Assembly: GCA_964368975.1 (NCBI GenBank)
Contig: CAYJDP010000002.1
Location: 2,039-34,431, forward strand
Length of the DNA: 32,393 nt
Source: an uncultured Muribaculaceae bacterium
GTDB lineage: Bacteria > Bacillota_I > Bacilli_A > RF39 > UBA660
Direction: 5' to 3'
Shown here: piece by piece, positions 10,817-14,001 of the stretch
Numbering within the stretch: position 1 is the stretch's first letter
Layout: each line of letters begins with the position of its first letter
Program-made: the position numbers and the translations under genes
Notes under the pieces: model-generated
The model's input: the letters and a program-made list of their open reading frames with translations, nothing else
What the model was told of the DNA's origin: nothing
Database searches by the model: none

Positions 10817-12028
10817 ATGAAATACAAAATAAAAAATAACATGAAAAAATTCGTTAAAAGTAAAGATACTTTTACAATGATTGAAGTTGTAATAATAATA
10901 ATAGTAGCTATGATATTAGGGGTTTCTATAGGGGCGGTAATATCTTATCATAATAGTTTTGATGATAATAATATACAAGAGTTTATTGATACTTACAATG
11001 ATATTTCGAATAATTATTATGATGAAGTAGATAAAAATTTATTAATTGAATATGCGATTGCAGGAATGATTGAATCATTAGATGATCCTTATTCTGAGTA
11101 TTTAGATATAGAAGAAAGTGAATCTTTTAACCAAAGTGTAAATGGTAACTATGTTGGTATTGGTACTACTGTTGGTGTAAGTGTAGATGGTGTTGCTTAT
11201 ATATTAGGAGTATTTGAAAATTCTCCTGCTAGTGAAGTTGGTTTAGAAGTTAATGATATTATTTTAAAAATCGACGAAGAAGATGTTAGTAATACAGATA
11301 TGGATACGTTAACTGGATTAATAAAAGGTGAAGAAAATACTAAAGTAACACTTCTTATTAAAAGGGGTGATGAAGAACTATCTTTTGAATTGGAAAGAGC
11401 AGTAGTAGATTTACCATCTGTTACTAACGAAGTTATTGAAGAAGATGGTAAAAAAATTGGAGTATTAAGTGTATCAATGTTTGCTGCAAATACATATGAT
11501 CAATTTGAAGAACAATTAAATGAATTAGAAGATCAAGATATTGAATCTTTGATAATTGATGTTAGAGGTAATCCAGGAGGTCATTTAACCCAAGTTAGTG
11601 ATATGCTCTCATTGTTCTTAAATGAAGGCGATATATTATATCAACTAGAAACAAAAGGTAAAATTGAAAAATATAAAGATGAAACTGAAGAAAGTAGAAA
11701 CTATCCTATAGTAGTTTTAGTTGATGGTTCTTCAGCTTCTGCTTCTGAATTATTTACTGTAGGATTAAAAGAATCTTATGAAAAAATAGATATTATAGGT
11801 GTTAATACTTATGGTAAAGGTTCTGTTCAAGAAGCTTATGATTTAGATTCTGGTTCTACATATAAATATACTGTGCAAAAGTGGTTATCTCCAGAAGGGA
11901 ATTCTATAGATGAAGTTGGAGTTGCACCTACTGAAGAAGTTGTTTTGGATGAAATATATTTTACTGATCCAACTATAGAAAATGACAATCAATTTCAAAA
12001 GGCTTTAGAAATTTTAAAAAACAAATAA
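10817..12028 (+). CDS. S41 family C-terminal processing peptidase with PDZ domain (Ctp-like)
   Basis: It contains VRGNPGGHL and DGSSASASE (the S41 catalytic Ser box), a PDZ-like GLEVNDIILKIDEEDV segment and the Lys region YGKGSVQ. AGAGGTGG lies upstream of the ATG at 10817. Confidence 0.9.
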   Translation: MKYKIKNNMKKFVKSKDTFTMIEVVIIIIVAMILGVSIGAVISYHNSFDDNNIQEFIDTYNDISNNYYDEVDKNLLIEYAIAGMIESLDDPYSEYLDIEESESFNQSVNGNYVGIGTTVGVSVDGVAYILGVFENSPASEVGLEVNDIILKIDEEDVSNTDMDTLTGLIKGEENTKVTLLIKRGDEELSFELERAVVDLPSVTNEVIEEDGKKIGVLSVSMFAANTYDQFEEQLNELEDQDIESLIIDVRGNPGGHLTQVSDMLSLFLNEGDILYQLETKGKIEKYKDETEESRNYPIVVLVDGSSASASELFTVGLKESYEKIDIIGVNTYGKGSVQEAYDLDSGSTYKYTVQKWLSPEGNSIDEVGVAPTEEVVLDEIYFTDPTIENDNQFQKALEILKNK

Positions 12029-12049
12029 GAGTCTAGATAGACTCTTTTA
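12027..12049. terminator. Bidirectional terminator between convergent genes
   Basis: AAGAGTCT (12027-12034) pairs with AGACTCTT (12039-12046), with A/T runs on both sides. It overlaps both stop codons. Confidence 0.6.
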
Positions 12050-12584
12050 ATTTACTTATTATTACTAGTTGTTGATTTTCTATATTGCTACACGTTGTTA
12101 AAATAAGATTTGTTTCATTATTTTTTTTAATTTCAATATTTCCATCTTTTATTTGGTTACTTATAGAATTTATTTGATATGTATATGTTATACTGTTATG
12201 ATTTAAATATATTAAATCATTTTCTTTTATGTTAAATAATTCATTGAAGTATGCTGTATTTCCTTCGCCGGAGTGTGCCGCTAAATAAATATTAGTATTT
12301 GGTATTGGTGGTATAGTAGAGTCACTTAATATTTCTACGTTTTTTTCTACAGTATTTTCATTACTAATAGGGTCATACAGTAAATATGTTTTATTATTTA
12401 TTGTTAATGTTGCAATACTAGTTATTGGGTTTTTCAATTTTTTTTGCTCTTCATTTATTTCTGTTAATTTAGGTGTAGATATAGTATTTTCTAATGGTTT
12501 GATTTTAGAAATACTATTTTCATTTATGTTTATATTAAATATATTAATAATTATTAGAAAGATTAGGGTTATTTTTTTTAACAT
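12033..12584 (-). CDS. Sortase-family transpeptidase, atypical (no Arg anywhere in the protein)
   Basis: N-terminal TM anchor, His box IYLAAHSGEG, and Cys box LILTTCS (Cys165, codon 12090-12092). The protein contains no arginine. The position where the catalytic Arg normally follows the TLxTC box reads NIENQQLVIISKL. It overlaps the upstream adhesin gene by 41 nt. Confidence 0.8.
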   Translation of the reverse strand: MLKKITLIFLIIINIFNININENSISKIKPLENTISTPKLTEINEEQKKLKNPITSIATLTINNKTYLLYDPISNENTVEKNVEILSDSTIPPIPNTNIYLAAHSGEGNTAYFNELFNIKENDLIYLNHNSITYTYQINSISNQIKDGNIEIKKNNETNLILTTCSNIENQQLVIISKLKESI

Positions 12585-14001
12585 AACATATTCCTATACA
12601 AATTATTAAAGAAATTAAAGAGATTGTAGATTTTTTAGTTGTATTAGTATCAGGTACTGGTATTTTATAATCATATAATTCGATTGTTTCTGGATTGTTA
12701 TCTTCTATTATTATTTTAAAATCATCTGTTTCTTTATATCCAGCAGTTGTATTTAATTGTTTAACTGTATAAGTTCCATAAGGTAAGTTAGCTGTTGCGA
12801 TACCTAAATTATTTGTTGTAATAGTCTCTACTAAGGTGTTTTTGTTATTATATATTTCAAATGAAATATTTTCTTCTGGTATAAAGTTATTAGTAGTACC
12901 ATAGTATTTTTTTAGAGTTATTTCTTTTTCTATAACTTTATTTTCTACAGTTAATTCTATATTTGTGTTATCTTGTCTTGGAAATACTTCATAGATTGTT
13001 TCATTTAGAGTGTAACCGATTCCTGCTTTTATTTCTTTTATATAATATTTTGCGTATTGAATATCATTTATTATAGTTTGATTATTTTCATCAATTGTTA
13101 CTTGATAAAGTTCATTCATTTGATTATCGTATACTTGATATACTGAGCCTATAAGTGATGCTTCTCCACTAGGAGTTATACTATTAGTATCTTTATCTAT
13201 TTTTGTTATTTTTATTTCTGTATTTTTAACTGCTACATTAAATGATATATTAATAGCCGGTATATCACCTACAGTCATTAATGTTTGTGATGTATTTGAT
13301 TGATAATAAATAATTGGTTTATTATATGCTGGTTTATTTTTTGTTAGTGTTATAGTTTCGATTCCACTAGAGATAGGATTTATTGTTATTGTATCTTTGC
13401 TAATAGTTGCATTGTTTGATGTTACTGTATATTCACTTAATCCTGAATACGATATATTTACTAAATTGTTTGCTGCACTATAATAAGTTTTACCATCAAT
13501 ATTATTTTTCGTTGTATAATTGTTAATTAAATTATTTATTTCGTTTATTTCATTATTAAATGGTTCTATTCTTTGACCGTTTAAAGTTTGTGTAAAATAA
13601 TAGTCTGCATTAGGATCTGCTACTTGCCATATCATTAATTGTGTTATTGCATACCATTTTGAATCAGTATGATTTTGATATCCATATCCAAAATGAGATA
13701 TAAGTGCTATTTTATTTTGTTGTTCAATAGTTAAATTATTTGGATTGAAAGTTGGTGTATAAACTGAATTAGCATTAAACATTACAAATGGCTCTATACA
13801 ATATGCATGTTGATTAGAGTGATTTTCTCTTACTATTTTACCTGTTAAATAATAAGTTATTCCGGCCTTTTCTTTATTTAAATACACTCCAGGAATTGTT
13901 TCTGCTTCATAAAAAGTAGTTGATTCTGCTTTTACATTTATATTATTAGTAAAAGATAATACTGCTACAATTATTATTAAGAAAATATTTATTTTTTTCA
14001 T
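12544..14001 (-). CDS. Cell-wall-anchored adhesin: signal peptide, thioester (TED/TQXA-like) domain, two CnaB/SpaA-type domains, C-terminal sorting signal VPDTN
   Basis: AAGGAGGAA RBS and signal peptide MKKINIFLIIIVAVLSF...VKA. AYCIEP (Cys68, codon 13798-13800) and AITQLMIWQ (Gln121) fit the TED motifs [YFL]C-hydrophobic-[DENQ] and TQxA-hydrophobic-W. Two segments are typical of CnaB folds: IKITKIDKD...GSVYQVYD...YYIKEIKAGIGY and YGTYTVKQLNTTAGY. The tail is VPDTN (12643-12657), then a hydrophobic helix, then KK. Confidence 0.85.
   Translation of the reverse strand: MKKINIFLIIIVAVLSFTNNINVKAESTTFYEAETIPGVYLNKEKAGITYYLTGKIVRENHSNQHAYCIEPFVMFNANSVYTPTFNPNNLTIEQQNKIALISHFGYGYQNHTDSKWYAITQLMIWQVADPNADYYFTQTLNGQRIEPFNNEINEINNLINNYTTKNNIDGKTYYSAANNLVNISYSGLSEYTVTSNNATISKDTITINPISSGIETITLTKNKPAYNKPIIYYQSNTSQTLMTVGDIPAINISFNVAVKNTEIKITKIDKDTNSITPSGEASLIGSVYQVYDNQMNELYQVTIDENNQTIINDIQYAKYYIKEIKAGIGYTLNETIYEVFPRQDNTNIELTVENKVIEKEITLKKYYGTTNNFIPEENISFEIYNNKNTLVETITTNNLGIATANLPYGTYTVKQLNTTAGYKETDDFKIIIEDNNPETIELYDYKIPVPDTNTTKKSTISLISLIICIGICYVKKNNPNLSNNY

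Follow-up and report, generated by a model that had tools for sequence, protein, structure and literature searches.

A sortase without arginine and its neighbouring thioester adhesin in an uncultured member of the Bacilli

All sortases are said to contain a His-Cys-Arg triad (2026 paper, PMC13257024). The role of the Arg is debated, the residue being regarded either as a stabiliser of the oxyanion or as a holder of the substrate (PMC9520033), and its mutation to Ala in several natural sortases resulted in inactive enzymes (PMC13257024, PMC9520033). In crystals of S. pyogenes SrtA with substrate mimics bound, the Arg contacts the P4 and P3 carbonyls rather than the scissile carbonyl, and the oxyanion hole of SrtA is formed by the Thr preceding the Cys together with backbone amides (PMC9520033). 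An evolved S. aureus SrtA specific for LMVGG, in which the Arg is replaced by Ser, is arginine-less yet efficient, and in this enzyme changed selectivity goes with the loss of the Arg (PMC9520033). Here we describe a sortase from an uncultured bacterium that also has no Arg. The evolved SrtA is artificial and carries many other mutations, whereas the change in the clade described here is natural, ancient and family-wide, and is accompanied by a new conserved Lys. The sequence analysed, referred to as the window, is a stretch of 32,393 nucleotides with a G+C content of 25.7% from a genome of ~1.0 Mb that is 92% complete.

The nearest described enzymes by sequence are the class D sortases (B. 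anthracis SrtC/'SrtD' 2ln7, C. perfringens SrtD 4d70 and B. subtilis YhcS), alongside those of class C. Among solved structures a class D enzyme gives the window protein its best profile match (2ln7, E 9.5e-13), and at class level the NCBIfam scores are likewise highest for class D. These enzymes use non-Gly P1' residues and anchor their substrates to the wall nonetheless. Like the window enzyme they are small, have an N-terminal anchor only, lie beside the substrate gene, and accept Asp or Asn at P2 and a residue other than Gly at P1' (LPDTS/LPDTA for YhcS, LPNTA in B. anthracis). The window enzyme differs from class D in having Gln for the β8 Arg, Lys146, Val instead of Leu at P4 of its signal, and a β7/β8 loop of only 6 residues.

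Similar profile and fold scores come from the pilus sortases of class C (S. pneumoniae SrtC-3 with its substrate RrgC, S. agalactiae SrtC1 4d7w, C. perfringens SrtC 6ixz). The class C signal VPDTG of RrgC is also the end of one paralogue's substrate in the present genome, and the substrates of both groups have SpaA or pilin-like domains. Unlike class C, the window enzyme has a single substrate and is found without a C-terminal membrane helix, an evident lid (its sequence has no DP(F/W/Y) motif) or a pilus gene set, and Gln stands in place of the HRLLVRG Arg. The best structural matches are short-loop class A enzymes (S. agalactiae SrtA 3rcc, S. pyogenes SrtA 3fn6), with the same His, Thr-Cys and β-barrel core; unlike the window enzyme, these serve as housekeeping sortases for LPXTG signals and depend on their Arg (spySrtA R216A is dead).

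Sortase superfamily members are recognised by a match to Pfam PF04203, the MEROPS C60 fold, and an eight-stranded β-barrel in which the His closes β4 and the TLxTC Cys closes β7. The window protein matches PF04203 with 45.8 bits (cut-off 26.6), its residues 72-177 covering profile positions 15-122 of 125, and has the barrel fold and the His and Cys in these positions. An AlphaFold2 (AF2) model built with 38 homologues has a mean pLDDT of 80, with the core above 90, and consists of an N-terminal helix (residues 2-16), a disordered linker that is of low confidence at residues 33-53, and a β-barrel in which β7 spans residues 159-165 and β8 residues 171-182. Top Foldseek matches to this model were solved sortases throughout, the best being 3rcc (TM 0.76, E 1e-9). 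None of the NCBIfam class cut-offs was reached by the window protein (33.7 bits of the 165 required for class D, 32.7 of 160 for class C and 20.1 of 160 for class E), classes A, B and F gave no match at E <= 0.01, and the generic model TIGR01076 scored 38.5, below its threshold of 39.35. The hallmark of the canonical classes, an Arg at the start of β8, is absent, with Gln172 there instead. The protein is thus a member of the sortase superfamily within an arginine-less clade outside classes A-F, in which it is not filed because its scores fall short of the class cut-offs and the defining Arg is missing. We call this grouping, which is defined in the present analysis and not in the literature, the Gln-type sortase clade: Gln, or rarely Tyr, His or Asn, in the Arg column, Lys or Arg at position 146, Gly148, and a gene that overlaps a TED/SpaA gene ending in V-P-x-T-x. 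The window locus has each of these features. A Pfam scan of the window's own genome listed three other sortases without the window copy, which was recovered by the profile search.

The original prediction, made from the DNA alone, held that the 183-residue protein has no Arg at all, and neither an Arg residue nor an Arg codon is present. Its other readings of the gene also proved correct: the His box LAAHSGEG (His104), the Cys box LILTTCS (Cys165), two Gln residues at 12069-12074 (Gln171-Gln172), a 41-nt overlap with the adhesin gene, and a VPDTN signal at the end of the adhesin. Arg makes up 2.85% of residues in the genome's ORFs of at least 150 aa, giving a probability of ~0.005 for its absence from 183 aa; since 9 of 808 such ORFs are Arg-free, the window sortase is unusual but not unique. 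The nine are mostly membrane- or secreted-protein-like.

The position of the missing Arg was examined by alignment. Alignment by hhalign of the family profile with S. aureus SrtA paired His104 with His120 and Cys165 with Cys184. This alignment and the top profile matches to solved structures end just past the Cys, because the β7/β8 loop lengths differ, and leave the Arg unplaced. When 165 sequences, close Arg-type relatives among them, were aligned with MAFFT, Gln172 fell in the column of S. aureus SrtA (SaSrtA) Arg197 and of the HRLLVRG Arg of class-C-like sortases. The Arg site is thus filled by Gln172 at Cys+7, and not at Cys+8 to +13 as had been expected; the chain stops 11 residues further on. 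In the 38 homologues Gln172, His104, Cys165, Asn77, Lys146 and Gly148 are all invariant, and a Gln that leads into hydrophobic residues lies beyond the TC motif in 249 of the 263 relatives found in two database searches, although pairwise identity within the clade is only 35-45%. In a larger set of 383 arginine-less relatives the Arg column holds Gln in 369+3, the remainder having Tyr, His or Asn, so that comparison with other sortases and with orthologues finds the loss of Arg to be conserved. The suggestion that the catalytic Arg is supplied from a mis-assigned region elsewhere in the chain was rejected, as Arg does not exceed 37% in any column of the clade and 47 of the 263 relatives have no Arg anywhere.

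The loss of the Arg is accompanied by a change at position 146, the first residue past β6. We aligned 452 sortase sequences in which both the His and the Cys are retained and tabulated the Arg column against position 146. The pairings (Arg column/position 146) were Gln/Lys (369 sequences), Gln/Arg (3), Tyr/Lys (6), His/Lys (2), Asn/Lys (2), Arg/Pro (54), Arg/Glu (10), Arg/Asp (4) and Arg/Asn (1). A basic residue (Lys or Arg) is therefore found at 146 in 383/383 arginine-less sequences and in 0/69 of the Arg type. Both hhalign and MAFFT align this position with Pro163 of SrtA, which in the S. aureus enzyme is counted among the residues of the active-site tunnel with Cys184 and Arg197 (PMC7696255; also Table 2, PMC3166054). 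On the alignment with SaSrtA and this published residue list, Lys146 is a candidate for a position near Gln172 and Cys165.

A quick maximum-likelihood tree gathered all arginine-less sequences into one group (SH-aLRT 89), whose sister is formed by three Arg-type sequences from related genomes (L019-L021), and points to a single origin of the clade. Because the arginine-less sequences form one group, the Lys146/Gln172 pair is best read as one evolutionary event that has been strictly retained, not as repeated covariation. Some sub-lineages (L008, L018, L012, P0160, P0187, P0207, P0214, P0204 and P0251) have Tyr, His or Asn in the Arg column with Lys146 retained in all, and the Tyr group is a well-supported clade. 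The closest Arg-type relatives, L020 and L021 (G008, G018), are preceded by proteins of ~500 aa whose ends read KELPQLYESK... or KLPFLGVYYEK..., not V-P-x-T; these ends may be a different, unrecognised signal.

The gene that the sortase overlaps encodes a 485-residue adhesin with a signal peptide, a thioester domain (TED, 39.2 bits against a cut-off of 22) and two SpaA domains (63 bits against 23.1). The thioester itself is predicted from a Cys motif (AYCIEP) and a Gln motif (ITQLMIWQ). The protein ends with the VPDTN motif, a hydrophobic segment and a basic KKNN tail (Table 1). The adhesin and sortase genes are translationally linked, the Shine-Dalgarno sequence of the sortase (AGGA, 7 nt ahead of its ATG) lying inside the adhesin gene. 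Directly 3' of this ATG, within the overlap, is an A8 homopolymer (12572-12579, minus strand) in which a one-base slip would alter the adhesin tail and the sortase anchor alike; it could be a phase-variation site or merely AT-rich Lys codons. At the other end of the sortase gene, where it converges with the S41 protease gene, a perfect 8-bp palindrome covers both stop codons and resembles a bidirectional terminator used by the adhesin-sortase operon and the protease gene alike. A promoter scan was at background, with 24 sites against 22.8 expected.

Table 1. Features of the adhesin-sortase locus, by position in the window.
Feature	Position	Strand	Evidence
Palindromic hairpin, T-runs on both sides	12027..12046	.	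Terminator scan: 2 terminator-like sites vs 0.3 expected
Gln-type (arginine-less) sortase gene, 183 aa	12033..12584	-	ORF; Pfam Sortase; AF2 model; Foldseek; no Arg
Gln172, start of β8, catalytic-Arg column	12069..12071	-	MAFFT column of SaSrtA Arg197; β8 171-182 in model
Thr164-Cys165 of LILTTC (predicted nucleophile and preceding oxyanion-hole Thr)	12090..12095	-	Cys invariant, Thr 99% conserved; Thr role from PMC9520033
Lys146-Asp-Gly148, end of β6, candidate substitute for the lost positive charge	12141..12149	-	Lys/Arg at 146 in arginine-less set; aligns with SaSrtA Pro163
His104 (LAAHSG), equivalent to SrtA His120	12273..12275	-	Invariant in all aligned sequences; hhalign to His120
Asn77	12354..12356	-	Kept in 96% of Gln clade, other residue in Arg-type sortases
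N-terminal membrane anchor of sortase, residues 2-16, LKKITLIFLIIINIF	12537..12581	-	Helix 2-16 in AF2 model; MLKKI + hydrophobic start common to homologues
Adhesin/sortase overlap of 41 nt (12544-12584) and sortase Shine-Dalgarno AGGA (12592-12595) inside adhesin gene	12544..12595	-	
Substrate gene: thioester (TED) + 2x SpaA adhesin, 485 aa, signal peptide	12544..14001	-	Pfam TED, SpaA; Cys and Gln motifs
Hydrophobic segment and basic tail (STISLISLIICIGICYV KKNNPNLSNNY) past VPDTN	12547..12630	-	
VPDTN sorting motif, adhesin residues 449-453; predicted cleavage after Thr452	12643..12657	-	

The window's genome encodes two further Gln-type sortases (L001 on G000 contig 35 and L002 on G000 contig 28), each overlapping a thioester adhesin gene; their signals are VPDTA and VPDTG. 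An end of VPDT-x and a membrane segment occurs in just three of the genome's ORFs, each beside its own Gln-sortase, and because of this each enzyme appears to be dedicated to its neighbour. Another locus, L003 (G000 contig 4), encodes a SrtB-like sortase of 258 residues that retains the usual Arg (LVTCTRMFGIDDNRSIKIDARL). Its gene is flanked by those of two large secreted proteins, and the enzyme may be the only Arg-type sortase that the genome has.

Comparison of 80 loci from related genomes, retrieved with a 13-sequence alignment, distinguished two sub-clades. Type 1, to which the window copy belongs, has an enzyme of ~180 aa with the motifs L-x-LTTCS ... Q-L-(I/V)-(I/V) in a two-gene unit without a co-directional downstream gene, and the genes overlap by 4-44 nt in nearly all loci. 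The partners in 50/50 type 1 loci share the consensus end Y-K-I-(P/K)-V-P-(N/D)-T, followed at P1' by His, Tyr, Ser, Arg, Lys, Asn or Gln and never by Gly or Ala. All ten partners tested have a TED and two SpaA domains, and 19 of the 50 substrates have a short hydrophobic end without a basic tail, unlike classical sorting signals. In type 2, which comprises the genome's two other copies, an enzyme of ~220 aa (LTLITC ... Q-T-(I/V)-(Y/F)) and a substrate with the signal V-P-x-T-(G/D/N/A) form part of a three-gene unit completed by a membrane protein of 5-6 helices; this third gene also follows L001 and L002. The hosts are uncultured gut and rumen Bacilli, variously labelled Bacilli, Mollicutes, Tenericutes or Candidatus Onthousia, and no cultured host was found among the cluster members. 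Of 24 genomes from the window's own family, 18 carry Gln-type sortases.

Two database proteins, P0210 (1292 aa) and P0265 (1190 aa), are putative fusions of adhesin and sortase in a single chain, in the order TED, six or seven SpaA domains, VPNT(Y/G), TM helix, short basic loop, TM helix and Gln-type sortase. With this topology the signal and the catalytic domain would both face the exterior of the cell. Unless their gene calls are frameshift read-throughs, the two proteins suggest self-processing adhesins and are independent evidence, at the level of sequence, that a Gln-type sortase acts on a V-P-N-T-x signal.

Taken as a whole, we consider it probable that the product of the window gene is a functional sortase, anchored in the membrane and devoted to the thioester adhesin whose gene lies upstream, and that it belongs to a clade of single origin, carried by gut and rumen Bacilli with small genomes, in which the Arg was exchanged for Gln together with Lys146. 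Most likely Gln172 and Lys146 take over the substrate-positioning role of the Arg in an active, dedicated transpeptidase. The adhesin would be exported and retained in the membrane through its C-terminal segment. Cys165 of the catalytic domain (approximately residues 55-183) would attack the Thr452-Asn453 bond (VPDT|N), with an oxyanion hole made up of Thr164 and backbone amides, while the P4/P3 backbone of the signal would be held by Gln172 and by Lys146 from a neighbouring strand in place of the Arg. The thioacyl intermediate would then be resolved by the amine of a cell-wall precursor, fixing the adhesin to the wall. The exchange of Arg for Gln and Lys may be coupled to the altered signal, which has Val at P4, Asn or Asp at P2 and no Gly at P1'.

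This scheme bears on two proposals of the original prediction. That of a divergent sortase with Lys or Gln in the role of the Arg fits the family-wide Gln172, the co-conserved Lys146 and the purifying selection described below, but the Lys residues that follow the Cys are not conserved, the conserved one being Lys146, which precedes it. The accompanying phrase, that such a residue stabilises the oxyanion, is probably the wrong description, as the structural work (PMC9520033) gives the oxyanion hole to the Thr, here equivalent to Thr164, and the P4/P3 carbonyls to the Arg. A further-reaching interpretation, which we regard as possible but somewhat short of an even chance, is that these enzymes form a seventh, re-wired sortase class in which the charge has moved from β8 to the end of β6, giving a His-Cys-Gln/Lys site that reads V-P-(N/D)-T-x with any polar P1' residue. 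On this interpretation the polar or basic P1' side chain of the substrate (His, Tyr, Arg, Lys, Ser or Asn) might itself contribute to catalysis.

The enzyme could instead be active but serve something other than peptidoglycan anchoring: hydrolytic release of the adhesin, assembly of a Lys-linked adhesin fibre, or transfer to another envelope acceptor. The signals lend this some weight, since P1' is never Gly or Ala in the 50 type 1 loci and many substrates have no basic tail, unlike housekeeping signals, as do the pilin-like SpaA domains and the occurrence of VPDTG as the pilin signal of S. pneumoniae RrgC. Each cassette, however, has one substrate and no second pilin gene, no YPKN-type pilin motif was seen, and the enzyme is without the class C lid or a C-terminal membrane segment. 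A full set of wall-synthesis genes is present, and because several penicillin-binding proteins, MraY and Mur ligases are encoded the genome makes a wall to anchor to; class D enzymes, as noted above, likewise anchor to the wall with a P1' residue other than Gly. We judge a non-anchoring function unlikely on this balance.

Activity is not a given once the Arg is lost, because Arg-to-Ala mutants of several natural sortases are inactive, and this, together with the failure to reach any NCBIfam class cut-off, is what speaks for a catalytically dead sortase-like protein with a non-enzymatic role as an adhesin chaperone or retention factor. Pseudo-enzymes usually lose the nucleophile, however, whereas here Cys165, His104 and Thr164 are invariant or 99% conserved at 35-45% identity, and the strict V-P-x-T of the partners is understandable only for a motif that is recognised and cleaved. 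A dead protein is accordingly a still less plausible explanation than an active enzyme with another acceptor.

The window gene has a syntenic orthologue (L084) between the same formate-tetrahydrofolate ligase (FTHFS) and S41 protease genes, present in two independent assemblies, with the identical 41-nt overlap and the same Gln. Comparison with this locus gave dN/dS values of 0.19 for the sortase and 0.29 for the adhesin and, among the neighbours, 0.22 (S41 protease) and 0.26 (FTHFS); with dS ~1 in a 26% GC genome the absolute values are rough, and only the comparison between genes is reliable. The window sortase is thus under purifying selection similar to that on its housekeeping neighbours. 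The idea of an inactive relic is contradicted by the low dN/dS, by a His, Thr-Cys and Gln that are invariant in hundreds of relatives, by three cassettes in a 1-Mb genome and by the natural fusions, and the decay in this copy beside orthologues with a normal Arg that it would imply was not what the orthologue displayed. It is very improbable that the window copy is a pseudogene in decay or the product of faulty sequencing or assembly: a complete absence of Arg is rare in this genome, but the frame is intact, the ratio is low, many relatives are equally Arg-free, and the two assemblies of the orthologue, which are independent, show the same Gln and the same overlap, which excludes error.

Literature searches for VPDTN/VPNTH-type signals and for arginine-less or His-Cys-Gln sortases found nothing relevant. 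New here are type 1 as a two-gene sub-clade with a signal of its own and no membrane-protein gene behind it, the association with Lys146, the selection test and the natural, if putative, fusions. With the reading of an active, dedicated sortase as the preferred one, a large natural arginine-less clade that has kept the Thr-Cys-His core and gained a Lys at a tunnel-lining site is a ready-made test of the role of the Arg. If these enzymes do form a seventh class, the 'universal' Arg would be a substrate-positioning device and not a catalytic necessity. The orthogonal pair of sortase and signal could be useful for protein ligation. V-P-(N/D)-T-x would be a new sorting signal that LPXTG-based searches miss, so that in many uncultured Bacilli of gut and rumen the surface proteome is likely to be under-annotated.
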